Positions 8,177 to 23,636 of a DNA stretch of 61,486 bases are shown here, piece by piece (the stretch's first letter is position 1; the number at the start of each line of letters is the position of its first letter). Under the pieces are notes generated by a model. That model was not told where the DNA came from and searched no databases. It was given only the letters and a program-made list of their open reading frames with translations. The stretch is from Kofleriaceae bacterium (GTDB lineage Bacteria > Myxococcota_A > Polyangia > Haliangiales > Haliangiaceae), in assembly GCA_046597055.1 (NCBI GenBank), contig JBKJLC010000057.1, positions 1 through 61,486 of the forward strand. Direction: 5' to 3'. Both the position numbers and the translations under genes were made by a program.

Positions 8177-9694
8177 TTAATAGAGCGTCGGGGGCTCGAC
8201 GGTCGCAAAGCTTGGCTCCTTCGCCGGTGCCGGCGCGTCGGGGGTCACGGAGGTGGGGGCCGACGGCCCGGGCGCGGGCGTCGCCGGAGGTCCGCTGGCG
8301 CGGCGCGGCCGGGGTCGGGTCGCGACTGGCTCGCGGACCGACGCTCGCGCCGAGGCCTGGCCGCGGTCACGGTCGGCCTGGGGCTTGGCAGCGACGCGCC
8401 GGTCGCGCTCGCGCGGGTCGGCGCCGCGCCGGAGGTCCTCGCGTTGTTCGGGGGCGCGCCGGGGCGCCACCGGTGACGCTACCGGCGGTTCGGCGACCAT
8501 GATCACCCGCGCGGCCGGCACCGCGATCACCGCGACCGGACTCGGGCTGGCGACCGGCGCCGCGGCCTGAGGCGACAGCACGCGCACGAGCAGCGCGGCA
8601 GCGAGCCCGAGCCCAGCCGCGCCCACGCTCGCGAGCATCCAGATCGACGCGGCCGGCGCCCGCGAGGCGCCCGACTCCCACCGGGTGGCGTCGCTCGCGG
8701 ACGCGGGCAACGTGATGGCGATCCGGCTGGTGGAGGTGTCGTCGCGGCCACCGGCTGCGCGTTCGTCAGGCGAGGTCGGCTCGTCATCGCCGAACAACCG
8801 GCGGCGCGGCACCGCGTCGTCGTCGAACCCCGCCTGGCCGGGCAGGGTCGGTGCTTCAGCGGTCGCCAGCCCGGCGAGGGCCTCGTCGAGCGCCGCCATG
8901 GTCGCGAACCGTTCGCTGGGTCGCTTGGCCAGGCACCGCTCGATGATCGCCGACAGCGCGGCCGACACCGGCGCGATCGCGGACGGCGGACGCGGCGCGC
9001 AGAACGCGTGCTCGGCCATCATGTCGGCGGTGTTCGTGCCGGCGAACGGCAGCGTGCCGGTGACCATGTGATAAGCCACCACGCCCAGCGCGTAGACGTC
9101 GGTGCGAGCATCGACGTCGTGGCCACCCTCGGACTGCTCGGGCGCCATGTAGGCCGGCGTGCCCAGCACCACGCCGGTCTTGGTCGGCTCGCGACCGTCG
9201 ACGTCACGCTTCGCGATGCCAAAGTCGAGGAGCTTCACGCGCTCGCCGGCCGCCGCCGCAGCATCGGGGACCACGAACACGTTCTCCGGCTTGAGATCGC
9301 GGTGCACGATGCCAGCCGCGTGGGTGCACGCGAGCGCGGCGGCCAGCTGCCGGGCGAACGCGACCGCGCACGCCTCGCGAAGCCGGCCGCGCCGCAGCCG
9401 ATCGCTCAGCGGCTCGCCGACCAGCCGCTCCATCACGACGTAGGTGCGACCGTCGAGCGTGGTGCCGACGTCGAGGACCGCGACGATGCCGGGGTGACGG
9501 ACCGCGGCCATGGTGTGAGCCTCGTCCACCATCCGCCGCACCATGGTTGCGTCGCCGACGAGGTGGGGGTGTAGCACCTTGATCGCGACCGGCAGGCGAA
9601 GCGTGCTGTGCTCGCCAGCGAAGACCACGCCCATGCCGCCGCGGCCAATTGGCTCCAGCACGCGGTAGCGACCGAGATCCTCCAGGAGCGTCAC
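8177..9694 (-). CDS. Hanks-type Ser/Thr protein kinase with TM helix and Pro-rich tail
   Basis: IGRGGMG, VAIK, HRDLKPEN, DFGIAK, GTPAYMAPE; GTG start 9694 supported by the sigma54 promoter. Confidence 0.95.
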   Translation of the reverse strand: MTLLEDLGRYRVLEPIGRGGMGVVFAGEHSTLRLPVAIKVLHPHLVGDATMVRRMVDEAHTMAAVRHPGIVAVLDVGTTLDGRTYVVMERLVGEPLSDRLRRGRLREACAVAFARQLAAALACTHAAGIVHRDLKPENVFVVPDAAAAAGERVKLLDFGIAKRDVDGREPTKTGVVLGTPAYMAPEQSEGGHDVDARTDVYALGVVAYHMVTGTLPFAGTNTADMMAEHAFCAPRPPSAIAPVSAALSAIIERCLAKRPSERFATMAALDEALAGLATAEAPTLPGQAGFDDDAVPRRRLFGDDEPTSPDERAAGGRDDTSTSRIAITLPASASDATRWESGASRAPAASIWMLASVGAAGLGLAAALLVRVLSPQAAAPVASPSPVAVIAVPAARVIMVAEPPVASPVAPRRAPEQREDLRRGADPRERDRRVAAKPQADRDRGQASARASVREPVATRPRPRRASGPPATPAPGPSAPTSVTPDAPAPAKEPSFATVEPPTLY

Positions 9695-9706
9695 GCAGAG
9701 CCGTGA

Positions 9707-9722
9707 TGCAAGGGGTGTTCCT
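9707..9722 (-). promoter_or_regulatory. sigma54 -24/-12 promoter (kinase)
   Basis: Minus strand AGGAACACCCCTTGCA = GG-N10-GC with TTGCA. Confidence 0.65.
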
Positions 9723-9852
9723 CCCTCCGGATCGTCGGAGCGCGTGACCACCGCGACGGATCGGCCAACCAAAGTGGGGTCTCATCTCCGTCGATCGGGG
9801 GAATGGTCCCATGGGGACACCTCGAACTCGACGCGAGCTACCGGTACCGGAG

Positions 9853-9868
9853 TGGCACCCCCCATGCA
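9853..9868 (+). promoter_or_regulatory. sigma54 -24/-12 promoter (FG-GAP gene)
   Basis: TGGCACCCCCCATGCA. Confidence 0.75.
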
Positions 9869-9880
9869 CTGCACGGCGTC

Positions 9881-11083
9881 ATGGGAACGCGAACTTCGAT
9901 CATTGTTGGATGTCTCGGCGTGTGGGGATGTTTCCAACCCCACGTCGAGGACGGGGCGGTCGCGTGCGGCGAGGCCGGTTGCCCGCCGGGCCTCGCCTGC
10001 GTGGAAGGCGTCTGTCGGACCCCGGTCGAGGGAGGCCCGGGCGGGGGATCCCCGGGTGAAGCCGGCGACGTGGTGCTGGCCATCGCCCGCCACAACGCGA
10101 CGAGCGAGGTCCGCGCCTACTGTGATGGCGGGCTCGAGCCGGCATGGGAGATCGCACCCGGATGGAGCGCCAGCACGGTCGCCTGGGGCAAATCGCACGG
10201 GGCGCGACCGGAGCTGGTGGTCGGCAGCAGCGACGACGAGCTGCGGCTGTTCGAGATCAAGGGCAACGCGCTCCATCAGGTGGCAGCGCTCGACTGGCTG
10301 CGGCAGTCGCGCAGCACCGGCTGGGCCGACTATGACGGCGACGGCGATCTCGATCTCGCGATCTCGGACGGCGAGCACTCGCTGAAGGTGATGCGCAGCC
10401 GGCGCGACGGGCTCGAGACCCTGTGGCACGCCGAGGACATGGTCGAGCCCTGGGGCCTGGCCTGGGGTGACCTCGACGGCGACCGGCTGCCGGATCTGGC
10501 GGTGGCCTCGTCGACCACGGTCAGCGTGTACCGGAATATCGGCGAGGCCTTCACGCGCGCGTGGACCCGGCCGGGCACCGAGGACACCCGCAGCGTGGCC
10601 TGGGCCGATCTCGACGGCGACGGCGATCTCGACCTGGTGTCGGGGTCGCTCGCGGGGCCGGTGCGCGCGTTCACCAACCAGGGCGGCGTGCTGATCGAGA
10701 GCTGGGCGTCGCCACAGCACGGCGACGTGCCGGCGCTCGCGTTCGGCGACTACGACGGCGACGGCGATCCTGATCTGGCGGTGGCCGGGCGCGATCAGCC
10801 CAGCCGCGTGTACCGCAACGACCGGGGTGCCCTGGTGCCAGCGTGGGCGACCGAAGCCTCGCTCACCACGTGGAGCGTCGCCTGGTTCGACGTGGACAAC
10901 GACGGGGACCTCGATCTCACCCTCGGCAACCATGACCAGCCGAGCCGCATCCTGCGCAACGACGACGGCAGGCTGGTCGACTGGCTGACCCTCGACGTCG
11001 GTCAGGTGCGCGAGCTGAGCTGGACCCGCTGGCCGCTGGACGCCGGCGAGGCCTCGGTCTGCGACAACGGCCGCGGCTGGTGA
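9881..11083 (+). CDS. FG-GAP/VCBS repeat lipoprotein with Cys-rich N-terminal module
   Basis: Lipobox VWGC; CGEAGCPPGLACVEGVC; five W/F-x-D-x-DxDxxxDL repeats. Confidence 0.88.
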   Translation: MGTRTSIIVGCLGVWGCFQPHVEDGAVACGEAGCPPGLACVEGVCRTPVEGGPGGGSPGEAGDVVLAIARHNATSEVRAYCDGGLEPAWEIAPGWSASTVAWGKSHGARPELVVGSSDDELRLFEIKGNALHQVAALDWLRQSRSTGWADYDGDGDLDLAISDGEHSLKVMRSRRDGLETLWHAEDMVEPWGLAWGDLDGDRLPDLAVASSTTVSVYRNIGEAFTRAWTRPGTEDTRSVAWADLDGDGDLDLVSGSLAGPVRAFTNQGGVLIESWASPQHGDVPALAFGDYDGDGDPDLAVAGRDQPSRVYRNDRGALVPAWATEASLTTWSVAWFDVDNDGDLDLTLGNHDQPSRILRNDDGRLVDWLTLDVGQVRELSWTRWPLDAGEASVCDNGRGW

Positions 11084-11521: not shown

Positions 11522-12799
11522 TCAGTCGTCGGTCTCGGTGACCAGGCCGTAGCGATGGGCCAGCTCGCTGAGGTGGCTGCGGTCCATCTTCACCGCGCGG
11601 GCCGCCTTCGACAGGTTGCCGTCGTGCGCCGGCAGCAGCTCGCCGAGGTAGCGCTTCTCCCAGTCGCTGGTCGCGCGGCCCTTGGCGTCGCGGAACGACA
11701 GCTCGGTGTCCATGGACGGCTCGTCCTCGAGCAGCGGCGCGCCGACCAGCGCGCGCTCGATGGCGCTGCGCAGCTCGCGCACGTTGCCCCGCCAGACGCC
11801 GCGCATCATGGCCCGCACCAGCTCGACCGGCGGCGCCGCGGTCGGATCGGCGAGCAGCTCGCGGTAGAACGACGCGACCAGCATGGCGACGTCGTCGCGG
11901 CGATCACGCAGCGGCGGCAGCACCACCCGCACGGTGTTGAGCCGGTACCAGAGGTCGGAGCGAAACGTGCCCTGGTTGACCTCGCGGCGGAGATCTCGGT
12001 GGGTCGCGGCGATCAGGCGCACGTCGATCGGGACCTCGCGGCTCGAGCCGACCCGACGGATCACGCGACGCTCGAGCGCGCGCAGGAGCTTGGGCTGGAG
12101 GTCGAGCGGCAGCTCGCCGATCTCGTCGAGGAGGACGGTGCCGCCGCTGGCCGACTCGAACAGCCCGACCCGGGCCTCGACCGCGCCCGTGAAGGCCCCG
12201 CGCTCGTGCCCGAACAGCTCGGACTCGAGCAGGGTCCCGGGTAGCGCACCGCAGTCGACGACCACGAACGGCCCCGACCCGCGCCGGCTGACCTCGTGGA
12301 CCGCCTCGGCCAGCGCGCTCTTGCCAGTGCCGGTCTCACCCTCGATCAGGATGGTGGCCTCGGCGACCGCGACCCGCTCGAGCAGCGCGAACACCCGCCG
12401 CATCGCGACGCTGCGACCGAGCACCCGCCCGAAGTGATCGTGGGGCGACAGCGCCTCGCTGACGGTGTCGTCGAGGAGCTCGATCGCGAGCACGCTCTCG
12501 CCGATCGCGATGGTGTCGCCGGACGCGAGCACCGCGCTGGTGACGCGGTGACCGGACACGAAGGTGCCGTTGGTGCTGCCAAGATCCTCGCAGTGGAAGC
12601 CGTGGTCGCCGATGCGGATCGTGCAGTGATGGCGCGACACGCAGCGATCGCGCAGCCGCAGCAACTGCCCGGTGCCGGAGCCGACCGTGATCTCCTCGGC
12701 GGTCGACTCGACCGCCAGCGGGGCGTCGGGGCCGCTCATCACGACGACCCGGAAGCGAGCTATTTCCACGCGATCGCGGGTTATCCGACGGGTGCCCAT
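11522..12799 (-). CDS. FHA-domain sigma54 enhancer-binding protein (FHA-AAA-Fis HTH)
   Basis: VSRHHC and DLGSTNGT (FHA), [42 protein letters not shown]. Confidence 0.95.
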
Positions 12800-12814: not shown

Positions 12815-12830
12815 AGCAACCAACGTGCCA
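12815..12830 (-). promoter_or_regulatory. sigma54 -24/-12 promoter (EBP gene)
   Basis: TGGCACGTTGGTTGCT, consensus match. Confidence 0.85.
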
Positions 12831-12911
12831 CTGCCGCTCCCCAATCAATGTCGCGCGCTTGGCCGGCGGGCGCCGAATACCGAGCTTCGGTTGCGGGCTC
12901 CAGCCAACAGA

Positions 12912-12958: not shown

Positions 12959-13930
12959 TCAGAGATGGCCGTCGCCGGCGATCTCGTCGACGCCGAACAC
13001 GGTTCCGGACAGGGCCAGGCCCAGCGAGGACCAGGTCAGGCCGCCGTCGGCGGTCGACAGCACCTCGCCGTCGTCGCCGGCCGCGAGCCCCACGCCGTGC
13101 GCGTTGACGTGGACCGTGCGCAGCGTGCCGACCCCGCGGGTCGCGATCGCCACCGCGTCGCGGCCGTCGATCCGCGCGATCACGCCACCGGCGCCGACCG
13201 CGATCACGTCACCGCTGCCGGTGACCCACGCGCCGTGCAGGTCGAGCTCGCGGCCGAGATCGATCGTGCGCCAGCTGGCGCCGCCGTCGTCGCTGCGCAG
13301 GAGCGCGCGGCCGGCCCCGGCGGCGACGCCCCGGGCGCCGTCGTGCGACATCGCGACCACCCGTGCGCCATCGAGGCGCGCGACCTGCCCGGCCGTGCCG
13401 ACCCCGGCGTCGTAGCGCCAGACCTGCCCCTCCCCATCGAGCGCGAGCGCGCGATCACCACCGTGGCCGGCCGCGACCGTGAGCCACGAGGAGGCCGGAT
13501 CGACCGGCAGCGGGGCCCAGGTCGCGCCCGAGTCAGGCGACATCATCAAGAGGCCATCGCCGCCGACATAGATCGAGTCGCCGCCCGCCGCCGCGACCGA
13601 GCGCAGCGTGCGGGTGGTCTCGAGATCGATGACGTCCCAGCTGGCGCCGCCGTCGAACGTGCGCAGCAGCGTGCCGAGCTCGCCGACGACAAACGCGGTG
13701 TCGAGGCCGCGACACGCGATGCCGAGCAGGTCGTGCTCGCTGTCGAGCTGGTAGCCGTCGCCCATCACGCCGCGCTGATCGAGGTCGGCCATCAAGCCGT
13801 CCTCGCCCACCAGCCAGGCGCCACCGCCACCACCGCCGTCACCGGTGTCCTTCTTCTTGTCGCAGCCGGTGGCGAGCACCGCCACCGCGCACGCGCTGGC
13901 GAAGAGAGTCTGCTTCATCGATCGCTTCAT
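12959..13930 (-). CDS. Ycf48/BNR-repeat beta-propeller lipoprotein
   Basis: Lipobox ATGC; repeated S/TxDxGxS/TW Asp-boxes; GGAGA RBS. Confidence 0.88.
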   Translation of the reverse strand: MKRSMKQTLFASACAVAVLATGCDKKKDTGDGGGGGGAWLVGEDGLMADLDQRGVMGDGYQLDSEHDLLGIACRGLDTAFVVGELGTLLRTFDGGASWDVIDLETTRTLRSVAAAGGDSIYVGGDGLLMMSPDSGATWAPLPVDPASSWLTVAAGHGGDRALALDGEGQVWRYDAGVGTAGQVARLDGARVVAMSHDGARGVAAGAGRALLRSDDGGASWRTIDLGRELDLHGAWVTGSGDVIAVGAGGVIARIDGRDAVAIATRGVGTLRTVHVNAHGVGLAAGDDGEVLSTADGGLTWSSLGLALSGTVFGVDEIAGDGHL

Positions 13931-13964
13931 TGATCATCTCCGTTGAGGGTTGCGCCGGAGCCAG

Positions 13965-13980
13965 TGCAAGGACGAGTCCG
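13965..13980 (-). promoter_or_regulatory. sigma54 -24/-12 promoter (Ycf48-like gene)
   Basis: Minus strand CGGACTCGTCCTTGCA. Confidence 0.55.
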
Positions 13981-14111
13981 GGCACGCCGGTAATGACGAC
14001 GCGGACTCGCGGCGACGAGGATGGGGAAGCCGGGGCCCTGGCTGTCGGCTGGCGCCTGCAGTTCGCGACGCGCGCGACCGCGGAGCCCTTGATCTCGTTC
14101 GATCGCGGGCC

Positions 14112-14127
14112 CGGCACACACGTTGCT
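14112..14127 (+). promoter_or_regulatory. sigma54 -24/-12 promoter (heme operon)
   Basis: CGGCACACACGTTGCT. Confidence 0.82.
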
Positions 14128-14139
14128 GAAGAGCCAGGC

Positions 14140-16293
14140 ATGACCAGACGAATGCTCGCGTTGTTCGCCGCATGCAGCGGGGCCTTCGCGCTCGGCTGTT
14201 TCGGAGCGCCACCCGCGTCGGAGGGCGATCCGCTCCTCGACCCCGCCTGCCAGCTCGACACCCAGGGGGAGCGGACACCCGGCTATCCGTTCGACGTCGA
14301 TCGCTTCACCACGACCGTGCTGCCGGTGGTCGCACAGAGCTGCGGCGCCGGCGGCTGTCACGGGTCGCCGACCGGCAACGGCGGCTTCACCGTGTGGGCC
14401 GCTGCGCAGCCCGGCGACTGCGACTTCGGCAAGACCTTCAACAACGTCATCGGCAAGATCGATCTGACCACCCCCGCCAACAGCCGCCTGACCGCGGCGG
14501 TGTCGGGCGGCTCGGCGACCCACCCGTTCACGTTCCCGGCGACCGCGCCCGGGCTCGAGGCGCTCAAGGGCTTCGTCGACGCCGCCGCCGCCACCGCCGC
14601 GGCCGACGGGGGTGGCGTGACGCCGCCGCCGGGCCCGAGCCCGTTCAACTACACCGTCTACCAGCAGGTCGTGCAGCCCGCGCTCAACGCGGCGACCTGC
14701 GCGGCCGCCGGCTGCCACGGCAGCGGCGCCGCCGGCTTCACCCTGGCCGCGGCGCCGGCTGCCGGCAGCCCCGAGATGGAAGCCAACTTCATCGCGGTCA
14801 CCAGCCGCGCCAACCTGGCCGCGCCGGCCAACTCGGTCTTCTACGTACGCTCGACCGTGCTCCACGCCGGCGGCGGTTCGCGCGCGGTCGACGGCACCGC
14901 GGGCGCCGCCATCCTCGCCTGGATCGAGGACGCCAAGGCCAACGCCGGCAACGGCGGCGGTGGTGGCAACCCGACCTGCGCGCCGATCGACAAGTTCAAC
15001 GCCGGCGTGTTCCGCACCGAGATCTTGCCGATCCTCTCCGGTGATCTCGATCTCAACGCGGCCAACGGCCAGGGCCAGGGCGCCGGCTGCATGTCGGGCG
15101 CCTGCCACGGCATCGACCGCGGCCCCGGCACGTTCAGCCTGCTGCCGACCGCCGACACCGCGACCCAGCTGCAGAACTTCGCCTGCTTCGTCAACCTGAC
15201 CTCGCCGTCGGCGTCCGAGGTGCTGGCGTGCCCGCTCAACGACCCGCGGTGCCGACGCTACCCGCACCCGGGCCAGGACGTGCTCGGGGGCGCCAACGAC
15301 CTCAACTACCAGCGGCTGCTCGCCTTCCTCTACGGCGCCAAGTCCGACGTGTCGCCGCTCGACTTCGCGTTCTTCGTCCGCCGGATCAACCCGATCTTCA
15401 ACGACGTCAACGCGGTCGAGGCCGGCGCGCAGGGCCGCACCTGCGGCGACGCGATCGGCTGCCACGGCGTGAGCGTCGCCGGCCAGGCGCCGCCCAACGG
15501 CTCGGACTTCGCGATCATCCCCAACGCGGCCGACCTGGGCCGGCTCAGCTTCAACTTCGTGTCGGCGACCGGGTTCGTGAACTTCCTCAACCCGGGTGAG
15601 AGCTCGCTGTTCCTCTACCCGACCGACGAGATCGCCAACCGCGCCGACCACCCGTTCGCGACCGGGCTGCCTCACCCCGGCGGTCGCGACTTCGCGGTCG
15701 ACAGCCTCGAGGCCCAGGCGATCCTGCAGTGGGCCGCCGGCCTGCGCCCCGACCGCAACGGCTTCCAGCGCAACTGGCTGGTGCTCGGCGACTTCCCGGC
15801 CAGCCGGATCGCCGACCAGACCCTGGTCGACGAGCCCACCGCGATCCCGACCATCTTCGACCGCGGTGGCGGCTCGTTCAACCGCGGCGAGTGGGACGGC
15901 TTGTTCTCCGACCGCGCCGAGGTCGACCTCAACGTCGCCTTTCCGCGCGCGGCCACCGGCGGCCGGGTCGCCTACGCGGTGTCGTACGTCGTCAACACGG
16001 TGCCGCGCACCCAGCTGGCTCAGCTGGTGGTCGCCACCAACAACCCGATCCGCATCTACGTGAACGGCGCGGTGGTGGCGCAGAACGACCAGAGCGGCGG
16101 CGCCACCGCGCTGCTGACCCTGCCCGCGGCCGGTGGCACCACCCCGCCGGTGCGGATCATGATCAAGGCACTCCAGCGAGCCGACGACGCCCGGTTCGCC
16201 TTCACCGCCCAGCTCCGCGACGAGCTCGGCGTCCTGCTCACCGATCGCACCGGCGAGCTCGTGTTCACCCTCGGCCCGACTGGAGGCATCTGA
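14140..16293 (+). CDS. Lipoprotein with four cytochrome-c-like domains (CX4CH x3, CX5CH x1) and a C-terminal beta-sandwich
   Basis: Lipobox ALGC; CGAGGCH, CAAAGCH, CMSGACH, CGDAIGCH, each preceded by F/Y-x3-V/I-x-P and followed by a distal His (HP, HAGG, HPG, HPGG). Confidence 0.75.
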   Translation: MTRRMLALFAACSGAFALGCFGAPPASEGDPLLDPACQLDTQGERTPGYPFDVDRFTTTVLPVVAQSCGAGGCHGSPTGNGGFTVWAAAQPGDCDFGKTFNNVIGKIDLTTPANSRLTAAVSGGSATHPFTFPATAPGLEALKGFVDAAAATAAADGGGVTPPPGPSPFNYTVYQQVVQPALNAATCAAAGCHGSGAAGFTLAAAPAAGSPEMEANFIAVTSRANLAAPANSVFYVRSTVLHAGGGSRAVDGTAGAAILAWIEDAKANAGNGGGGGNPTCAPIDKFNAGVFRTEILPILSGDLDLNAANGQGQGAGCMSGACHGIDRGPGTFSLLPTADTATQLQNFACFVNLTSPSASEVLACPLNDPRCRRYPHPGQDVLGGANDLNYQRLLAFLYGAKSDVSPLDFAFFVRRINPIFNDVNAVEAGAQGRTCGDAIGCHGVSVAGQAPPNGSDFAIIPNAADLGRLSFNFVSATGFVNFLNPGESSLFLYPTDEIANRADHPFATGLPHPGGRDFAVDSLEAQAILQWAAGLRPDRNGFQRNWLVLGDFPASRIADQTLVDEPTAIPTIFDRGGGSFNRGEWDGLFSDRAEVDLNVAFPRAATGGRVAYAVSYVVNTVPRTQLAQLVVATNNPIRIYVNGAVVAQNDQSGGATALLTLPAAGGTTPPVRIMIKALQRADDARFAFTAQLRDELGVLLTDRTGELVFTLGPTGGI

Positions 16294-19202
16294 TGTCACG
16301 CCTGACCTGCACCCTGCCCTTGGCCCTCGGGCTCCTCCTCACCGCCGGCTGCGTGAGCGGCGTCGGCGACTCGCCCCCCACCAGCCCCGATGACCCCGGC
16401 GCGGTCGATCCGCTGCCGCCCCCGCCCCCGCCCGAGCCGCCGCCGCCGGCGCCCGGCGTCTACAAGCGCGGCTCGCTGACGCCGCTCTACCAGCTCACGC
16501 CCCGGGCCGAGTACGGCCGCTTCACCGAGAGCGCCGTCACGATGAAGGACGCCGACTTCGTCTCGACCGCCAACAACTTCGTCACCGCCAGCCAGAAGCT
16601 CGACGAGGTCGCCGCCCAGATCGCCCGCGAGCGCGGCGTGCCCTCGGTCAACCTGGCGCCCAAGGCCGAGGACCGCCAGCGCGCCCAGCAGATCCCGTTC
16701 CGCGGCAACCCGTCCGACGTCGACGTCGTCCGCATCGACGGCCGCCGCAAGGCGTACCTGCCGCTCGGTGGCGACCTGATGACGGTCGGCAACGAGATCG
16801 CCGCGGTCGACCTCGACAGCGGCCTGGTCACCCGGGTGAAGGTCGGCGTCCGCCCCCAGCGGATCGCCATCCATCCGGCCGGCCTGGTCTTCGTCTGCAA
16901 CCAGTACTCGAACTACATCTCCATCATCGACGCCCGCACCGATCAGCCGCTGCGCAACGCCGCCGGCCCGATCGAGATCAAGACCGAGTTCTACTGCTCC
17001 GACCTCGCGTTCGTGCCGCGCAGCGTGGCCGCGCCCGACCCCGACGAGCAGGACCTGTACGTCGCCAACAGCTGGCGGGCCAGCGTCCTCAAGTACGGCC
17101 TGACCGTCACCCGCGACGCGCTGTCCGACGACCCGATCGACGTGCGGGTCACCACGCCGGCGGCCCCGGCCACGCCCAACCAGCCCGAGGCCGAGATCAG
17201 CGGCGTCGGCGCCAACCCGTACCGCATCACGGTCAGCCAGGACCTGCGCGCGCTGTTCGTCGCCAACAACCGTGGCGGCGAGCTGGCCCGGATCGACCTG
17301 GGCACCCGCGCGGTCCGCCGCATCGCGATCAACGCGCCGGTGTCCGACGTCATCCAGGCCAACGACATCCTGATCGTCCCGACCACCACCATCGACCGCG
17401 GCCTGCCCGACGGTCGCGATCAGCAGCCGACCCAGATCGTCGCCGGCGCGGTGCGGGTCACCGGCATGGATGGCGCCCAGCACATCGCCCACCCGGGCGC
17501 GCTGTTCGACAACACCAAGGCCTACAACTTCGAAGATCTCCGCAACGGGCTCCTGACCGTCGACGCCCAGCTGAACGGCGGCGCGCCGCCGGTCTACTTC
17601 ACGGACTCGGTCTCGGCCGAGCCCAACTTCGCCGCCGCGCAGAAGGTGCTGCAGGGCACGCTGCCTCAGGCGGTGGTGGTCAACGCCGCGCGCAGCCGGG
17701 CCTTCCTGGCGATGTCGGGCTCCGACACGATCCAGGAGGTGACGATCAACGCCGGTGCCTTCCGCATCGCCGACGCCCCCGGCGCGCTGATGCGGACCTC
17801 CGAGCGCCCGTTCGCGCTCGCGCTCGACGAGGTGGCCCGCGAGCTGCTGGTCGCGACCTGGGGCGGCGAGACGCTCGAGGTGTTCGACACCGCCAGCGGC
17901 ACCCGGACCCGCCGCATCGACCTCGGCTACGCGATCGCCGACTACCCGGCGACCAACATGGAGCGCGGCGAGTACCTCTTCTACAACACCGGGTGGTCGA
18001 ACAACGGCACCAAGTCGTGCGCGACCTGCCACTACGACGAGCTCCTGCTCGACGGCGTCGGCTACGCCAACGGCGCCACCGCGCCGACCGCGTATCACAA
18101 GGTCCCGGCCAACTTCAACCTGATGACGACTGACTCCTACTTCTGGAATGGTTCGTTCGCCAATGGCACGTACGCGTCCCTGGCGGCAGATGCCCAGTCG
18201 CGCACCAACTGCGAGCTGATCCTGTTCGGCCTCACCGAGGGCATCGCGTCCGACCCGGCCCGCCGGGTCGGTGACCCCGGCAACCGCGTGCGCAGCGGCC
18301 AGGACGCGCAGTGCCGGCCCGACACCTCGGGCCCCGGGATCCTGCCCCGCAACTTCGCCCAGATCGCCGGCATCATCGCGGCCCAGAAGCTGGTTCGCGA
18401 ACAGGTGGTGCGCGCCGCCACCGGCCTCAGCTTCAACGACGTCGCGCGCATCGTCGACTTCTACTCGGTGTCCGAGCTGCGGCTGCCGCCCAACCCGCTG
18501 ACCTACCTGGCCGCCCGCAACGAGCTCGGCGCGGCCGACGCGGCCAAGCTGGCCCGCGGCAAGGAGCTGTTCACCACCGGCGGCTGCACCGGTTGCCACG
18601 ACCCGGGCAACCAGCGCCATCCGTACAGCGACGGCCTCGAGCACGGGTCGGGCACCGCGTGGTCGTCCAACTTCGTCGACACCTACAGCACCGACGCCCG
18701 GATCGTGAACTCCATCGGCGCCATCCCGCAGCTGATGCTGGAGGCCATCTCCGGCTCGACCCCGGACCGCGAGATCAACATCCACCTCGACCCGATCGAC
18801 TACTTCGCGCCGTTCTGCTTCGACGTCACGTCATGCCTGGTGTTCGAGGATCCGCTGGCGGTGCGCGGCAACCTGGCCGCCGAGACCGAGCGCCTCGACG
18901 TGCTGGTCCAGATCAACCTGGCCAACGTCGACCGCGGCTTCGTCCCTGGCAACCTGCGCGGTCAGCCGGCCACCAACACGCCGTCGCTGCGCGGCATCTG
19001 GTTCCAGACCAACTACCTGCGCCACGGCCACGCGCACACGCTGAAGGAGACCATCCTGGCCCCCGGCCACCCGGCGCTCGGCGCCGGCGAGCGCGGCTAC
19101 GCCATCGATGGGCTCGGCAACCGGGACGTCCACGGCAAGACAACCACGATGTCGGCCGCCGACGTCGACGCGCTCTACCTGTTCATCCAGTCGATCGAGT
19201 AG
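16293..19202 (+). CDS. Beta-propeller (YVTN/YncE-like) plus di-heme cytochrome c peroxidase/MauG-like lipoprotein
   Basis: TGATG coupling; lipobox TAGC; propeller repeats (VKVGVRPQRIAI, LYVAN, LFVAN); GEYLF...SCATCH...YFWNG; GKELF...GCTGCH; NTPSLRGIW. Confidence 0.85.
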   Translation: MSRLTCTLPLALGLLLTAGCVSGVGDSPPTSPDDPGAVDPLPPPPPPEPPPPAPGVYKRGSLTPLYQLTPRAEYGRFTESAVTMKDADFVSTANNFVTASQKLDEVAAQIARERGVPSVNLAPKAEDRQRAQQIPFRGNPSDVDVVRIDGRRKAYLPLGGDLMTVGNEIAAVDLDSGLVTRVKVGVRPQRIAIHPAGLVFVCNQYSNYISIIDARTDQPLRNAAGPIEIKTEFYCSDLAFVPRSVAAPDPDEQDLYVANSWRASVLKYGLTVTRDALSDDPIDVRVTTPAAPATPNQPEAEISGVGANPYRITVSQDLRALFVANNRGGELARIDLGTRAVRRIAINAPVSDVIQANDILIVPTTTIDRGLPDGRDQQPTQIVAGAVRVTGMDGAQHIAHPGALFDNTKAYNFEDLRNGLLTVDAQLNGGAPPVYFTDSVSAEPNFAAAQKVLQGTLPQAVVVNAARSRAFLAMSGSDTIQEVTINAGAFRIADAPGALMRTSERPFALALDEVARELLVATWGGETLEVFDTASGTRTRRIDLGYAIADYPATNMERGEYLFYNTGWSNNGTKSCATCHYDELLLDGVGYANGATAPTAYHKVPANFNLMTTDSYFWNGSFANGTYASLAADAQSRTNCELILFGLTEGIASDPARRVGDPGNRVRSGQDAQCRPDTSGPGILPRNFAQIAGIIAAQKLVREQVVRAATGLSFNDVARIVDFYSVSELRLPPNPLTYLAARNELGAADAAKLARGKELFTTGGCTGCHDPGNQRHPYSDGLEHGSGTAWSSNFVDTYSTDARIVNSIGAIPQLMLEAISGSTPDREINIHLDPIDYFAPFCFDVTSCLVFEDPLAVRGNLAAETERLDVLVQINLANVDRGFVPGNLRGQPATNTPSLRGIWFQTNYLRHGHAHTLKETILAPGHPALGAGERGYAIDGLGNRDVHGKTTTMSAADVDALYLFIQSIE

Positions 19203-19212
19203 GAGGCCGCCC

Positions 19213-20556
19213 ATGCGCGCTCGCACCATGTCTCTGATCTGCTCGTTGATGGTGACGGCCACCGTGTCGGCGGTCCACGCCGAGGATCGCGCGGCGGTCT
19301 TCACCCGGCGCGGCACCAACCTGCGCGCCCGTCCCGGCGAGACCGCGCCGGTGGTGGCCCGCGCCGACTCCGGCGAGGAGCTCACCGTGGTCGGTAGCCG
19401 CGGCCGCTGGCTGCGGGTCCGCCGCGGCAAGCGGGTCGGGTGGGTGACGCGCAGCCAGGTCGAGGACCGCGGGGCGACCGCGCCGCGCCAGCGGGCCCAG
19501 CGCACCGGCTTCTCGGGCAGGCCCCTCGAGGACGCGCTGCGGGTCGCGGTCACGATCGACCGGGTCCGCGGCTTCGACGACCCGACCACCAAGGCGAACC
19601 TGGTGCTCGACCTCGAGCGCGGCGACACCGTCACCGTGCTCGGCCGCGGGCACGACGGCTGGCTGCTGGTCGAGGCCAGCGCCGGTGGCGTCGGCTGGAT
19701 TCCAGCGACCGCCGTGACCGACGGCGGCCGGTTTGCCGGCGACCCGCGGCGAGCCCCGGGCGCCCCACCCGCGACGGCCCGTGACCTGACGGTGGTGGTC
19801 ACCGACGACGACACGGTCGCCCCGACCAACGCCGGCCCCGCGCCACGCGCGGCGACCTCGCGGCGGCGGGTGGTCGGGACCCTGGTCGCGACCGCGGGTG
19901 CGCAGACCTTCGCGATGCGCCAGGTCGGCGCCGGCGGGGAGGCGCTGGCGACCGCGCGCGGAGCGGCGGCGGCGTTTGCCGCGAGCGCCGGCGTGCGCCT
20001 CGCCAGCAACCTCTGGGTGGGCGCCTCGGCCGACGGCGAGCTCGGCACCGGCGCGCTCGTCTACACGACCCCGGGCGAGGCGTCGCCCCCGATGACGACC
20101 CGGGCGACCAGCCTCGATGGCCGGGCCCAGCTCGGCTGGGGCCGGCGCTGGCAGGTGGTGGCCCGCGGTGGCTACCACTTCGGCGCGCTCACCATCGCGT
20201 CCGACCGGGCCGAGCCCATGCTGGTCGGCGAACAGGTCGCCGGGCTCACCGTCGGGCTGGGCGGCGCCGTGCCGCTCGGCCGCCGGGCCGCGCTGACCAC
20301 CGCGATCGACGTCATGCCGGCCGGCGCCCAGCGGCCATCCGAGCTGCTGCCCGGCATCCTCTACGCGAACGGGATGCGCGCGGCCTGGTTGCACACGACC
20401 GTGTCGCTGCGGCTACCGGCCCGCATGGTGGCCGCCGTGAGCTACCGCGGCACCCTCGCCACCGTCGATCTGACCGACGGCGCCGCCGCGCCGACCACCG
20501 CCACCCGCACCGACCAGGCACACAGCGTCACCGCCGGCCTCGGGCTGGCGTGGTGA
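19213..20556 (+). CDS. SH3b-domain outer-membrane beta-barrel protein
   Basis: AGGAGG RBS; signal peptide; two SH3b domains (NLRARPG...WLRV...GWV; GDTVTV...WLLV...GWIP); amphipathic strands ending GLGLAW. Confidence 0.78.
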   Translation: MRARTMSLICSLMVTATVSAVHAEDRAAVFTRRGTNLRARPGETAPVVARADSGEELTVVGSRGRWLRVRRGKRVGWVTRSQVEDRGATAPRQRAQRTGFSGRPLEDALRVAVTIDRVRGFDDPTTKANLVLDLERGDTVTVLGRGHDGWLLVEASAGGVGWIPATAVTDGGRFAGDPRRAPGAPPATARDLTVVVTDDDTVAPTNAGPAPRAATSRRRVVGTLVATAGAQTFAMRQVGAGGEALATARGAAAAFAASAGVRLASNLWVGASADGELGTGALVYTTPGEASPPMTTRATSLDGRAQLGWGRRWQVVARGGYHFGALTIASDRAEPMLVGEQVAGLTVGLGGAVPLGRRAALTTAIDVMPAGAQRPSELLPGILYANGMRAAWLHTTVSLRLPARMVAAVSYRGTLATVDLTDGAAAPTTATRTDQAHSVTAGLGLAW

Positions 20557-20573
20557 TGGGAAGGAGTGACCCC

Positions 20574-20789
20574 ATGGCCTTCAAGGACGTCAAGCAAGAG
20601 CTCATCGATCAGTTCGAGCATCGCTACCTGTGTCACCTGCTCGAGCGTCACGGATGCAACCTGACTGCCGCCGAGCGCTCATCCGGCCTCTCCCGCCATC
20701 ACCTGCGCGCGCTGATGCGCAAGCACGGCCTGTACGAGGCGGTCGTGAGGACGCGGATGGCCTCCCTGTTGCAGAAGGAGCTGTCATGA
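20574..20789 (+). CDS. Stand-alone Fis-type HTH protein (71 aa)
   Basis: AAGGAG RBS; FKDVKQELIDQFEHRYLCHLLERHGCNLTAAERSSGLSRHHLRALMRKHGL resembles the EBP C-terminal HTH; ATGA overlap with pntA. Confidence 0.75.
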   Translation: MAFKDVKQELIDQFEHRYLCHLLERHGCNLTAAERSSGLSRHHLRALMRKHGLYEAVVRTRMASLLQKELS

Positions 20790-21931
20790 GGATCGCAATC
20801 CCCCGAGAGACCCTGCCGCGCGAGGCCCGCGTGGCGATCACCCCGGACACCGTGGCCCGCCTGATCGCCAAGAATTTCGAGGTCTCGGTTCAGCGCGGCG
20901 CCGGCCTGGGCGCGCAGATCAGCGATCCCGAGTACGAGGCGGCCGGCGCCCGACTGGAGCCTGACGCCCCGGTGCTGTGGCGTGCGGGCGAGGTCATCGT
21001 GAAAGTGCGGCCGCCGACTGACGACGAGATTGGCCTGCTGAGCTCCGGTCAGACGCTGATCAGCCTGCTCTACCCGCTCGCCGACGGCGAGAAGGTGCGC
21101 GACCTGGCCGCGCGCGGGGCGACCGTGCTCGCGGCCGACATGGTGCCGCGGTCGACCCTCGCGCAGATGATGGACGTGCTGAGCTCGCAGGCGACGATCG
21201 CCGGCTACCGCGCCGCGCTGCTCGCCGCCACCGCGCTGCCCAAGCTGTTCCCGATGTTGATGACGGCGGCCGGCACCATCACGCCGGCGCGCGTGCTGGT
21301 GCTCGGCGCCGGCGTCGCCGGTCTGCAGGCGATCGCGACCAGCCGCCGGCTCGGCGCGGTGGTCGAGGCCTTCGACGTGCGCAAGGCGGCCAAGGAGCAG
21401 GTCGAGAGCCTGGGCGCCCGCTTCATCGAGGTGCCGTCAGACGAGGACGCCGCGACCGCCGGCGGCTACGCCCGCGAGGTGTCCGAGGAATACAAGGCTG
21501 CGCAGGCGGCGCTGCTGCTGCAGGCGCTCGGCCGCTGCGACGCGGTGATCACCACCGCGCTCATCCCGGGCCGGCGCGCCCCGGTCCTGATCACCGCCGA
21601 GATGGTCCGGGTGATGAAGCGGGGCGCGGTGATCGTCGACATGGCCGCCGAGCAAGGCGGCAACTGCGCGCTGACCCGACCCGGCCAGCGCAAGATCACT
21701 GACGGCGGCGTGCTCATCGTCGGCGAGCTCGACCTGGCCAGCCAGGTCGCGGTCCACGCCAGCCAGATGTACGCGCGCAACATGGAGAAGCTGCTGCTGC
21801 ATCTCTATCGCGGGCCCACCGGTGGGCTCGACGTCGCCGACGAGATCGTGAAGGGCATGTTGATCATCCGCGAGGGCGCGGTCGTGCACGGCGGGGTCAC
21901 CGCCGCCGCGCAGAAGGAGCTGGCCGCGTGA
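20786..21931 (+). CDS. pntA: NAD(P) transhydrogenase alpha subunit part 1 (dI)
   Basis: MRIAIPRE...EARVAITP, DVLSSQATIAGYRA, GAGVAGLQAIAT, GGYA, TTALIPG, DMAAEQGGNC. Confidence 0.96.
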   Translation: MRIAIPRETLPREARVAITPDTVARLIAKNFEVSVQRGAGLGAQISDPEYEAAGARLEPDAPVLWRAGEVIVKVRPPTDDEIGLLSSGQTLISLLYPLADGEKVRDLAARGATVLAADMVPRSTLAQMMDVLSSQATIAGYRAALLAATALPKLFPMLMTAAGTITPARVLVLGAGVAGLQAIATSRRLGAVVEAFDVRKAAKEQVESLGARFIEVPSDEDAATAGGYAREVSEEYKAAQAALLLQALGRCDAVITTALIPGRRAPVLITAEMVRVMKRGAVIVDMAAEQGGNCALTRPGQRKITDGGVLIVGELDLASQVAVHASQMYARNMEKLLLHLYRGPTGGLDVADEIVKGMLIIREGAVVHGGVTAAAQKELAA

Positions 21932-22233
21932 GCACCACCCTCGTCATGGGCCTGTACGTCTTCGTCCTCGGCGCGTTCGTCGGCTGGCAGGTGCTGTCGA
22001 AGGTGCCCCACCTCCTCCACACGCCGCTGATGAGCGCGACCAACGCCATCTCCGGCATCTCGCTGGTCGGCTCGCTGGTCGCGGCCGGCAGCAACCACGA
22101 CGCCCTCACCACCCTGCTCGGCTCGATCGCGGTCACCGCGGCCACGATCAACGTCGTCGGTGGCTTCCTCATCACCGACCGGATGCTGCGCATGTTCAAG
22201 AAGAAGCCCGCCCGCGCCGGAGTCGTCCGATGA
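21928..22233 (+). CDS. pntA: NAD(P) transhydrogenase alpha subunit part 2
   Basis: LHTPLMSATNAISG, INVVGGFLITDRMLRMF. Confidence 0.95.
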   Translation: MSTTLVMGLYVFVLGAFVGWQVLSKVPHLLHTPLMSATNAISGISLVGSLVAAGSNHDALTTLLGSIAVTAATINVVGGFLITDRMLRMFKKKPARAGVVR

Positions 22234-23636
22234 CCACCACCGACCTCGTCCAGCTGCTCTACCTCGGGGCCTCGGTCCTGTTCATCCTCGGCCTGCAGCA
22301 GCTGGGCGCCGCCGACACCGCCCGCCGCGGCGTGCGCTTCGCCGAGCTCGGCATGGCGCTCGCGGTGATCGGCACGCTGCTGCACCACGAGATCGTCAGC
22401 TACCAGTGGATCGTCATCAGCATCGTGATCGGCTCGGCGATCGGCACCGCGATGGGCCTGTACATCCCGATGGTGAAGATGCCCGAGCGCATCGCGCTGT
22501 CGCACGCGTTCGGCGGGCTCGCGGTCGCCCTGGTCGGCGTGTCCGAGTACCTGCGCCACGGCAGCCAGGCGACGGTCCTGACCATCGCGGCGATCGGCCT
22601 CGAGGTCTTCCTCGGCGCGCTGACCTTCACCGGCAGCCTGATGGCGTTCGGCAAGCTGCAGGGCTCGATCACCGGCAAGCCGGTGACCTACCCGGGCCAG
22701 AACCTCACCAACTTGATGGCGGTCGCGGTCGCGGTCGCCGGCATCGGCTACCTCGTCGCCAACCCGTCGGCGGCCACCGTCTTCTACGTCGTGCTCGGCC
22801 TGGGTGTCGTGCTCGGCGTGCTGCTGGTGCTGCCGATCGGCGGGGCCGACATGCCGGTCGTGATCTGCCTGCTCAACGCCTACGCCGGTCTGGCCGCGGC
22901 GGCGACCGGTTTCGCGCTCGGGAACAACGTCCTCATCATCTGCGGCGCGCTCGACGGCGGCTCGGGCGTGATCCTCGGCCTCATGATGAGCAAGGCGATG
23001 AACCGCTCGTTCCGCAACGTCGTGTTTGGCGCGGTCGGCAAGGCGCCGGCGGCCGCGGCCGGCGCCGCCGGGGTCGCCACCCCGACCAGCGCGGCCAACG
23101 TCGGCTCGGTCGACGACGCGGTCGCGGTGCTGACCAGCGCCCGCTCGGTGATCATCGTCCCCGGCTACGGGATGGCGGTGTCGCAGGCCCAGCACATCGT
23201 GCGCGACCTCGCCAGCGCGCTCGCCGCCCAGGGCGTGACCGTGCGCTACGCGATCCACCCGGTCGCCGGCCGCATGCCCGGCCACATGAACGTGCTGCTC
23301 GCCGAGGCCAACGTGCCCTACGAGCAGCTGTTCGATCTCGACACGATCAACGACGACTTCGGCTCCACCGACGTCGCGATCGTGGTCGGCGCCAACGACG
23401 TGGTGAACCCGGCGGCGCGGACCCAGCCGTCGAGCCCGATCTACGGCATGCCGGTGCTCGCGGTCGACCAGGCGAAGACGGCGATCTGCTTCAAGCGGTC
23501 GTTCAACCCGGGCTTCGCCGGCATCGAGAACGAGCTGTTCACGCGGCCGAGCACGATGATGATCCTCGGCGACGCGCGCCAGAGCCTGCAGGCGCTGGTG
23601 CAGGCGGTGAAGGGCGAGCTGCGGCTGGCGGCGTGA
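22230..23636 (+). CDS. pntB: NAD(P) transhydrogenase beta subunit
   Basis: IGGADMPVVI, MSKAMNRS, PGYGMAV, IHPVAGRMPGHMNVLLAEA, GANDVVNP. Confidence 0.97.
   Translation: MTTTDLVQLLYLGASVLFILGLQQLGAADTARRGVRFAELGMALAVIGTLLHHEIVSYQWIVISIVIGSAIGTAMGLYIPMVKMPERIALSHAFGGLAVALVGVSEYLRHGSQATVLTIAAIGLEVFLGALTFTGSLMAFGKLQGSITGKPVTYPGQNLTNLMAVAVAVAGIGYLVANPSAATVFYVVLGLGVVLGVLLVLPIGGADMPVVICLLNAYAGLAAAATGFALGNNVLIICGALDGGSGVILGLMMSKAMNRSFRNVVFGAVGKAPAAAAGAAGVATPTSAANVGSVDDAVAVLTSARSVIIVPGYGMAVSQAQHIVRDLASALAAQGVTVRYAIHPVAGRMPGHMNVLLAEANVPYEQLFDLDTINDDFGSTDVAIVVGANDVVNPAARTQPSSPIYGMPVLAVDQAKTAICFKRSFNPGFAGIENELFTRPSTMMILGDARQSLQALVQAVKGELRLAA

Follow-up and report, generated by a model that had tools for sequence, protein, structure and literature searches.

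Proteins that join a beta-propeller to a di-heme domain of the cytochrome c peroxidase (CCP) type are widespread, and to our knowledge none outside hydrazine synthase has a known reaction. Here, we describe one such protein, the lipoprotein C969, together with B717, the lipoprotein encoded directly upstream of it. Both lie in a stretch of 61,486 nucleotides from a Kofleriaceae bacterium (assembly GCA_046597055.1, contig JBKJLC010000057.1), which is called the window below.

PMC12758564 reports many fused beta-gamma homologues of hydrazine synthase outside anammox bacteria, some of them encoded beside alpha-subunit homologues and FG-GAP genes and with Trp at the gamma-His144 position; an FG-GAP gene accompanies clades I-III of that study. 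The authors conclude that key residues are not conserved in non-anammox homologues. The same paper places gamma-Cys165, the third heme link, 59 residues after gamma-His106, and among the weak gamma-like Foldseek hits of its Table S6 is a Kofleriaceae protein of 972 aa; Myxococcota are not mentioned in the main text. C969 fits the broad group of fused beta-gamma homologues, but with a different partner, and its architecture has precedent.

What is new here is the pairing of a PSCyt1-like four-repeat lipoprotein with a beta-gamma-like propeller/di-heme enzyme in an island with sigma-54-type motifs and an FHA-domain activator. These motifs and the adjacent activator gene likely drive the lipoprotein pair, a predicted periplasmic heme redox module. 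Further likely products of this operon in the window's genus are an SH3b/beta-barrel protein, a small helix-turn-helix (HTH) protein, and an extra PntAB transhydrogenase. A preliminary description of this DNA had proposed a candidate undescribed extracytoplasmic heme redox system. That proposal is supported in part: the heme-protein module is uncharacterised and conserved, synteny is conserved in relatives, and no close match to a characterised complex was found. Literature searches found no paper on cytochrome c peroxidase in Kofleriaceae and, among the matches listed, none relevant by title or abstract that joins transhydrogenase or pntAB, sigma-54, and cytochrome c peroxidase.

The B717-C969 pair

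The core of the island consists of two genes whose stop and start codons overlap by 1 nt:

14140..16293, + strand: B717, lipoprotein (lipobox FALGC) with four PSCyt1-like repeats and a PA14-like end
16293..19202, + strand: C969, lipoprotein (lipobox LTAGC); CCP_MauG 38.3 bits, YVTN repeat

Conservation was assessed in 29 loci from species-representative genomes, all of them uncultured metagenome-assembled genomes (MAGs) of Myxococcota. Four of the 29 end within 450 nt of B717 and are not assessable for C969; in 19 of the remaining 25, C969 directly follows B717. The same holds for all 10 assessable loci of the individually sampled genomes. B717 and C969 are thus the constant core, and the SH3b protein and the pnt genes are recurring companions. 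The preliminary description had also drawn four envelope proteins together as one complex. This does not stand as a fixed unit, since just B717 and C969 are constant, and the roles of assembly propeller and anchor given to two of the proteins were guesses.

C969, a propeller/di-heme lipoprotein

C969 is a member of the CCP/MauG family with a beta-gamma-like architecture. Its lipobox cysteine (Cys20) is invariant in 20 sequences, and a YVTN beta-propeller at about residues 140-545 is followed by a CCP/MauG-type di-heme domain. The Pfam model CCP_MauG (PF03150) matches above its gathering score (38.3 vs 25.6 bits), and PF03150 is precomputed on 119 of 120 C969 homologues among the matches listed. 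All four cysteines and both histidines of the two heme c motifs, C576ATCH and C765TGCH, are invariant in the 20 sequences. The FWNG motif of C969, with its invariant W618, aligns to FWDG of 2c1u and 1iqc, so the CCP/MauG tryptophan is kept; the PSLRG...HG core likewise aligns to the PTLRN...HDG core of CCPs. Trp618 lies 38 residues after the heme-I histidine, as gamma-His144 does after His106, and it is this residue that aligns to the CCP tryptophan. The distal ligand of the second heme is Met in CCP and Tyr in MauG.

When the heme domain is compared by sequence with solved structures, hydrazine synthase gamma ranks first (E 3.3e-10), followed by CCPs at 1e-4 to 1e-2. For the fold of the C969 model, hydrazine synthase beta ranks first (E 1.3e-15, TM score 0.69 on the target), and other propellers score about three orders of magnitude worse; confidence in the modelled propeller is high, with a predicted local distance difference test score (pLDDT) of 80-95. 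A C-terminal DVHGxT aligns to DMHGRT of hydrazine synthase gamma, within a heme domain whose model is of low confidence, and the invariant pair Cys640-Glu641 comes 60 residues beyond the heme-I histidine. Curated models score far below their cut-offs on C969. This is so for the NCBIfam hydrazine synthase models NF052342, NF052341, and NF052340 (27.2 vs 1250, 27.0 vs 625, and 21.9 vs 560 bits). It is equally so for the weak matches to the MauG model (19.5 vs 443.85 bits) and the MbnH model (24.9 vs 362.85 bits), next to which 6e1c is also weakly matched.

The propeller is interrupted at residues 367-416 (window about 17391-17540) by a 50-residue loop that is poorly modelled and highly conserved, with P401, G402, D406, and N412-F413-E414-D415 invariant. 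It brings to mind a loop with a functional role that PMC12758564 describes in blade six of the hydrazine synthase beta subunit.

B717, a four-repeat lipoprotein

Searches of Pfam and NCBIfam gave no family match for B717, and a search of PDB sequences with the B717 profile gave 0 matches at E up to 10. The preliminary description had called the protein tetraheme. The count of four motifs stands; the motifs themselves are three CX4CH (residues 68, 187, and 317) and one CX5CH (residue 435), with no canonical CXXCH in the protein. In the alignment of the family the four C-X4/5-C-H-G motifs have invariant Cys and His, and each is followed by a conserved His-Pro or His. Six more cysteines are invariant, and HP(G)G motifs are conserved. 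The repeats are mutually homologous, with hhalign probabilities of 95-99% in five of the six pairs (98% for R2-R4) and 48% for R1-R4.

The repeats were compared with an alignment of the PSCyt1 domains that exceed the Pfam PSCyt1 cut-off in related genomes. Repeat R2 matches at 96.2%, R1 at 71.5%, R3 at 50%, and R4 at 1%, with reversed controls at 1.1% or less. The Pfam PSCyt1 model (PF07635) itself has no match at E up to 1 in any of 20 B717 family members. The spacing of the motif is variable throughout this group: distant B717 relatives have CXXCH, CX3CH, CX4CH, or CX5CH at the same site, and the PSCyt1 domains above the Pfam cut-off (loci L051-L062; L numbers denote loci in relatives) have CX2CH, CX4CH, or CX6CH. 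Cytochrome counts based on CXXCH alone would miss such domains. PMC11492766 treats CXXXXCH as a heme-binding motif, and cytochrome c assembly genes are present in the window's genome.

In the AlphaFold model of B717 (mean pLDDT 70.4) each repeat has four helices, and the motif comes just after helix 1. Residues 535-717 are modelled as a beta-sandwich of a PA14/galactose-binding-like kind. Fold comparison gave Foldseek matches (E 6e-4 to 1e-3; PA14 E 1.3e-3, probability 1.0) and VIA Z scores of 10.0-8.1 to GH2 sugar-binding and PA14 domains; the Pfam PA14 model has no match in B717. The fold searches returned this C-terminal domain only. An Atlas feature search, which serves as a lead only, returned Cytochrom_C + PA14 and PSCyt clusters at scores of 0.75-0.76. 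Taken together, B717 is predicted to be a four-heme, probably bis-His, cytochrome with a carbohydrate-binding-type end.

The possibility that B717 is a hidden homologue of the hydrazine synthase alpha subunit was rejected, because the HZS_alpha and hydrazine_alpha models have no match in it and its fold class (helical repeats plus a beta-sandwich) is different. The search found no longer fused forms of B717, which is weak evidence. Free-standing two-repeat B717-like proteins of 260-300 aa exist, and in one MAG a short B717-like fragment or two-repeat gene (L072, 3453-3899) lies just upstream of a full B717.

Distribution and gene orders

The island is an accessory one of uncultured Kofleriaceae-type soil myxobacteria. 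Of the 40 relatives in the first sample, 7 have a full-length C969 orthologue (one of them cut by the contig start at residue 56) and one more has a fragment; 5 of the 16 other genomes of the genus are covered by these finds. B717 occurs in 11 of 301 genomes of the class, the window's own included. A word-indexed search returned 253 B717 relatives at E <=0.001, all called hypothetical, and those with a taxon label come from Kofleriaceae MAGs. The family is small, with 167 clusters at E <=0.001 among 1.84 billion representatives.

Five gene orders are seen. In the first, found in the window's genus and one other, the FG-GAP, activator, and Ycf48-like genes precede B717, C969, the SH3b gene, the HTH gene (not always), and pntAB. 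The second is the same without the SH3b and HTH genes (G021 and L087; G000 is the window's own genome, and other G numbers are relative genomes). In the third, the activator gene is followed by B717, C969, sometimes the HTH gene, and a kinase gene, and in the fourth B717 and C969 are followed by the activator gene. The fifth belongs to a genus labelled Haliangium sp., in which pntA1, pntA2, and pntB precede a B717 paralogue (L078 and L082) or a pntA1-type gene precedes B717, C969, and the SH3b gene (L091). Other B717 paralogues of Haliangium sp., at about 40-45% identity, occur without C969 (L023-L025, L079, L081, L083, and L084); SpoIID-like genes adjoin them in L023, L024, and L025.

Neighbouring genes of the island

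The window has a G+C content of about 72%, and real reading frames were chosen by third-position G+C and family matches. The genes around the pair are as follows:

8177..9781, - strand: Ser/Thr protein kinase, Pkinase 157.8 bits; open frame, with the true start inside
9881..11083, + strand: FG-GAP repeat protein, FG-GAP_3 150.7 bits, 5 repeats
11522..12799, - strand: FHA-domain sigma-54 enhancer-binding protein (the activator), Sigma54_activat 221.6 bits, FHA 61.7 bits; ATG at 12799
12959..13930, - strand: Ycf48/BNR-like beta-propeller lipoprotein, PSII_BNR 57.2 bits
19213..20556, + strand: SH3b protein with signal peptide, SH3_3 61 bits, two domains
20574..20789, + strand: stand-alone Fis-type HTH protein, 71 aa, similar to the C-terminal DNA-binding end of the activator
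20786..21931, + strand: pntA1 (transhydrogenase alpha, NAD(H)-binding part), AlaDh_PNT_C 212.5 bits; NF006942 414.7 vs a cut-off of 383
21928..22233, + strand: pntA2 (alpha, 4-helix membrane part), PNTB_4TM 119.3 bits
22230..23636, + strand: pntB (beta subunit), PNTB 568.8 bits

The eight genes of the preliminary description are all real and positioned as described there. Its run of seven same-strand genes, joined by overlaps or by gaps under 20 nt, is confirmed with gaps of at most 17 nt: from B717 to pntB, the first two genes overlap by 1 nt, the next two junctions are gaps of 10 and 17 nt, and the last three are 4-nt overlaps. The activator, FG-GAP, and kinase genes are additions to that description, and all three belong to the conserved block.

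The kinase has one predicted membrane helix, a hydrophobic stretch at residues 377-400, and its gene is kept beside the block in G008, G012, G004, G299, G021, and G023. The FG-GAP protein, starting at ATG 9881, has a lipoprotein-like N-terminus (MGTRTSIIVGC). The C-terminal part of the SH3b protein looks like an outer-membrane beta-barrel, with Atlas scores of 0.94-0.96 to OpcA/OMP_b-brl/autotransporter clusters, again a lead only.

The 71-aa HTH protein shares 38% identity over 53 aa with the C-terminal DNA-binding end of the activator (BLASTP E 2e-10), and its NCBIfam Fis match (E 0.0069) is far below cut-off. Its gene is absent in G008 and follows C969 in G280. Speculatively, this small protein may compete with the activator for the same DNA sites.

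The Ycf48-like gene has the same distribution in the genus as the island. In G023 it faces pntAB directly, with B717, C969, and the activator gene on another contig, and it was not found in G040. The Ycf48-like protein as an obligatory partner of the pair was rejected on these grounds.

Sigma-54-type elements and regulation

Sigma-54-type elements of the GG-N10-GC form were scored by mismatches to the consensus. The pattern is not enriched over the window (24 loose matches vs 17.4 expected), and the loose GG-N8-NTGC pattern arises by chance about 0.6 times per 270 nt. Because it is so frequent by chance, only well-placed, conserved sites were used. Four matches in the window have at most one mismatch, and three of the four stand just before start codons of the island, those of the FG-GAP, activator, and B717 genes. 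The elements considered are:

9853..9868, + strand: sigma-54-type -24/-12 element before the FG-GAP gene, TGGCACcccccATGCA, 12 nt before ATG 9881; equivalent in 6 of 6 relatives
12815..12830, - strand: sigma-54 element before the activator gene, TGGCACgttggTTGCT, no mismatch, 15 nt to the ATG; in 7 of 8 loci
12892..12910, - strand: 19-nt element, copy 1, 17 of 19 bases identical to copy 2
13965..13980, - strand: sigma-54-like element before the Ycf48-like gene, cGGACTcgtccTTGCA, a weaker match, about 34 nt before the ATG with GGAG between; in 7 of 7 loci
14042..14060, + strand: 19-nt element, copy 2, between the divergent promoters
14112..14127, + strand: sigma-54-type element before B717, CGGCACacacgTTGCT, one mismatch, 12 nt before ATG 14140; in 6 of 6 loci
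20758..20773, + strand: internal sigma-54-like match, TGGCCTccctgTTGCA, 2 mismatches, 12 nt before the pntA1 ATG

In the eighth locus assessed for the activator element, the activator gene follows C969 directly. The promoter at 14112 had been proposed before, and its element is conserved. The second proposed promoter, before the Ycf48-like gene, is found at the same place in every locus compared, but is the weaker match.

The preliminary description had treated the seven genes as co-transcribed. A simple scan inside the operon predicted no sigma-70-like promoter and no terminator-like site, and no conserved internal promoter was found. The two terminator-like sites in the scanned stretch (2.6 expected) both fall inside the Ycf48-like gene. 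The match before pntA1 is not present in G008, G012, G004, or G299, has no 19-nt element nearby, and is probably not functional; the operon is thus most simply read as co-transcribed from the B717 promoter. Of the sequencing runs that contain this DNA, none listed carries an RNA label.

The 19-nt element is found 52-62 nt upstream of -24 elements, once at the activator promoter and once at the divergent pair. The window holds just these two matches to a pattern that was derived from them, and the CTGTCGG part is seen at both places in relatives. The activator or the small HTH protein may bind at this candidate site. In 21 of the 29 loci an activator-like gene (enhancer-binding protein type) is no more than 4 kb away from B717, and rpoN is present in the window's genome.

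With the -12 element 12 nt before the ATG (FG-GAP, B717, and the pntA1 site) or 15 nt before it (activator), there is no room for a ribosome-binding site. We infer that the FG-GAP, activator, and B717 transcripts would be nearly leaderless. Elements of the form TGGAAC-N5-TTGCT are seen 100-250 nt upstream of three B717 paralogues of Haliangium sp. (L078, L082, and L091); locus L074 is left out of this comparison.

The transhydrogenase genes

The three transhydrogenase genes have full-length Pfam family matches for all three parts, and the island pntB scores below the NF006974 equivalog cut-off (457.5 vs 689 bits). A second pntB, 48% identical, lies on another contig of the window's genome (C77:3373-4755). 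One TAG is read through in the matched frame of that copy, so that the gene may be broken, may in fact be two genes, or may contain an error. In a tree of 22 pntB sequences, two deep clades separate with support of 100/100. One clade contains a copy from every family genome sampled in the tree, whether or not that genome has the island, and all cluster-adjacent copies fall in the other, that of G021 on a separate branch. The island pntB is a second, separate lineage, an extra paralogue. In the genus, a second-clade pntB is present in all 6 genomes with C969 and in none of the 10 without it; G007 (75% complete) had neither.

Genes for pnt follow C969 or the SH3/HTH genes in G000, G008, G012, G004, G299, G021, and L087, are divergent and placed before B717 paralogues in L078 and L082, and are represented by a pntA1-type gene before B717-C969-SH3b in L091. 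The link between pntAB and the heme-protein genes that the preliminary description drew thus recurs, in three gene orders and four genera, but it is not universal, as G280 and G040 have the pair without cluster-type pntAB. Other NAD(P)-linked genes are found near the pair, namely one for a Fer4 + Pyr_redox_3 protein upstream in G137 (L021) and an NAD_binding_1 gene downstream in G040 (L018). In G137 a second propeller + cytochrome c gene (864 aa) lies 2.8 kb downstream.

Proposed function and alternative readings

The reading that we favour is that C969 carries out periplasmic peroxidase-type chemistry with B717 as its electron partner, and we hold its chances to be evenly balanced. In the proposed scheme, the neighbouring Ser/Thr kinase would pass a signal to the FHA domain of the activator, which would then open four sigma-54 promoters, those of the FG-GAP gene, the activator gene itself, the Ycf48-like gene, and B717. 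B717 would bind four c-type hemes at its CX4-5CH sites and deliver electrons to heme II of C969. Heme I, capped by the propeller, would reduce a small oxidant, by family most likely hydrogen peroxide. Simultaneously, thiol-based repair in the cytoplasm would gain NADPH from the extra PntAB, and the small HTH protein may compete with the activator for its DNA sites.

Several observations weigh against this reading. The nearest solved relative of C969 is hydrazine synthase, not a peroxidase, and the di-heme domain is modelled poorly (pLDDT mostly 20-70), too poorly for a meaningful fold search. Heme attachment at the CX4-5CH sites of B717 is a prediction, and we know of no precedent for CX5CH as a heme site. 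The Cytochrom_C model reaches at best E 0.034, in 4 of 20 B717 members, and six loci without C969 hold B717 paralogues at 39-47% identity. The B717 gene is read in two or three frames, broken at different places, in L016 (G021), L017 (G023), L085, L087, L088, L090, and L091; the breaks in these MAGs are either assembly errors or gene decay. As for the transhydrogenase, the extra pntB, the Ycf48-like gene, and C969 are present or absent together, so they count as one island and not as independent co-occurrence. G280, which has the pair, shows a single pntB match (50% identity) and no cluster-type pntB, the pair is also present in G040, where pntB has no match, and in G023 the pair is split from Ycf48-like and pntAB.

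It may be that the pntAB neighbourhood has no functional meaning and that a B717-C969(-activator) cassette landed in an older, sigma-54-controlled Ycf48-like/pntAB unit and was carried on with it as one island. We consider this unlikely. The G023 arrangement, with a sigma-54-like site 28 nt before pntA1 in the unit that lacks the pair, suggests that the pair may have been inserted into such an older unit. The genomes with the pair and no cluster-type pntB, and the joint presence and absence within the genus, speak for the same view. Against it, pnt genes stand beside B717-family genes in three orders and four genera, including paralogues of 40-48% identity in another genus, and the cluster-adjacent pntB of G021 is on a different branch from that of the window's genus. 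NAD(P)-linked genes also occur near the pair in G040 and G137, though such genes are common.

A second alternative, which we rate as rather improbable, concerns the chemistry itself. C969 would carry out nitrogen-oxide chemistry like hydrazine synthase gamma, either binding and reducing nitric oxide (NO) or acting on hydroxylamine. A tunnel for the substrate would be shaped by the propeller, B717 would feed electrons, and the island would be a nitrosative-stress or nitrogen-cycle module with NADPH for cytoplasmic detoxification. The top solved matches of C969, gamma by sequence and beta by fold, point this way. So does a domain order as in the fused beta-gamma subunit, with its weak match to NF052342. 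Measured against PMC12758564, so do the conserved loop 367-416 with its invariant NFED beside the functional loop of blade six, the FG-GAP gene in the block as in clades I-III, and the placing of Cys640 (60 residues vs 59 for gamma-Cys165), an argument from spacing alone. On the other side, C969 is far below the curated hydrazine synthase cut-offs and has Trp at the gamma-His144 position, as in CCP/MauG. There is also no alpha-subunit homologue, since B717 has no HZS_alpha match, and by the conclusion of PMC12758564 itself key residues are not conserved in non-anammox homologues. The fullest form of this alternative makes C969 a working cousin of hydrazine-synthase beta-gamma, acting on NO or hydroxylamine at the envelope with a four-heme PSCyt-type partner, sigma-54 control, and dedicated NADPH. 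We see only a small chance of that.

A third alternative, improbable in our judgement and with the nitrogen-oxide reading a main rival of peroxidase-type chemistry, is that C969 is MauG- or MbnH-like. Its target would be a partner protein (B717 or some other product of the island), modified by oxidation so as to form a cofactor or metal site. Membership in the CCP/MauG family with the tryptophan kept, the weak matches to the MbnH and MauG models and 6e1c, a strict two-gene pairing that resembles enzyme-substrate pairs such as MbnH-MbnP, and the six further invariant cysteines and HP(G)G motifs of B717 would suit it, but both models are far below their cut-offs, the cytochrome-like B717 repeats fit an electron partner better, and B717 paralogues occur without C969.

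Significance and comparison with known systems

For the C969 subfamily, the constant partner, the regulatory setting (kinase, FHA activator, and four sigma-54-type promoters), and the recurring tie to NADPH production are all handles for experiments. If C969 is only a peroxidase, the locus would be a stress island in which detoxification in the periplasm goes together with a supply of reductant in the cytoplasm. If the working-cousin reading were true, nitrogen-oxide chemistry outside anammox bacteria would gain a new branch. The island also bears on the origin of hydrazine synthase from ordinary periplasmic heme proteins. The B717 repeats add a cytochrome-like family with Cys spacing from CX2 to CX6, and the placement of the -24/-12 motifs, which would leave transcripts nearly leaderless, is a further point of interest.

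Hydrazine synthase beta and gamma (PDB 5c2v, chains B and C) have the same order as C969, a seven-bladed YVTN-type propeller and then a CCP-like di-heme domain, which in C969 are one protein. The FG-GAP gene nearby is a further likeness to the loci of fused beta-gamma homologues in PMC12758564. C969 differs in having Trp in place of gamma-His144, in its upstream partner, which is a PSCyt1-like four-repeat protein and not an alpha-subunit homologue, and in its hosts, which are soil myxobacteria and not anammox bacteria.

With CCP, MauG, and MbnH (PF03150; 2c1u, 1iqc, and 6e1c) C969 shares two CXXCH motifs, the FW(D/N)G tryptophan, and the PSLR...HG core. Unlike them, it is a lipid-anchored protein in which a heme domain of about 425 residues, with large insertions, is joined to a propeller. 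The DVHGxT motif near its C-terminus aligns to DMHGRT of hydrazine synthase gamma, and its E-values to CCPs are just 1e-4 to 1e-2.

B717 is like PSCyt1 ('Planctomycete cytochrome C', PF07635) in the profile match of repeat 2 and in the variable Cys spacing before His. It differs in having four tandem copies, no Pfam match, and His-Pro where PSCyt1 has Met-Pro. Its PA14/GH2-sugar-binding-like C-terminal domain invites comparison with the cytochrome c + PA14 proteins of Planctomycetota and Verrucomicrobiota. Lastly, the island pntAB has the same three parts as the three-gene proton-translocating transhydrogenase (pntAA, pntAB, and pntB), and differs from the ordinary enzyme in being a second copy, placed behind heme-protein genes and under sigma-54-type motifs.

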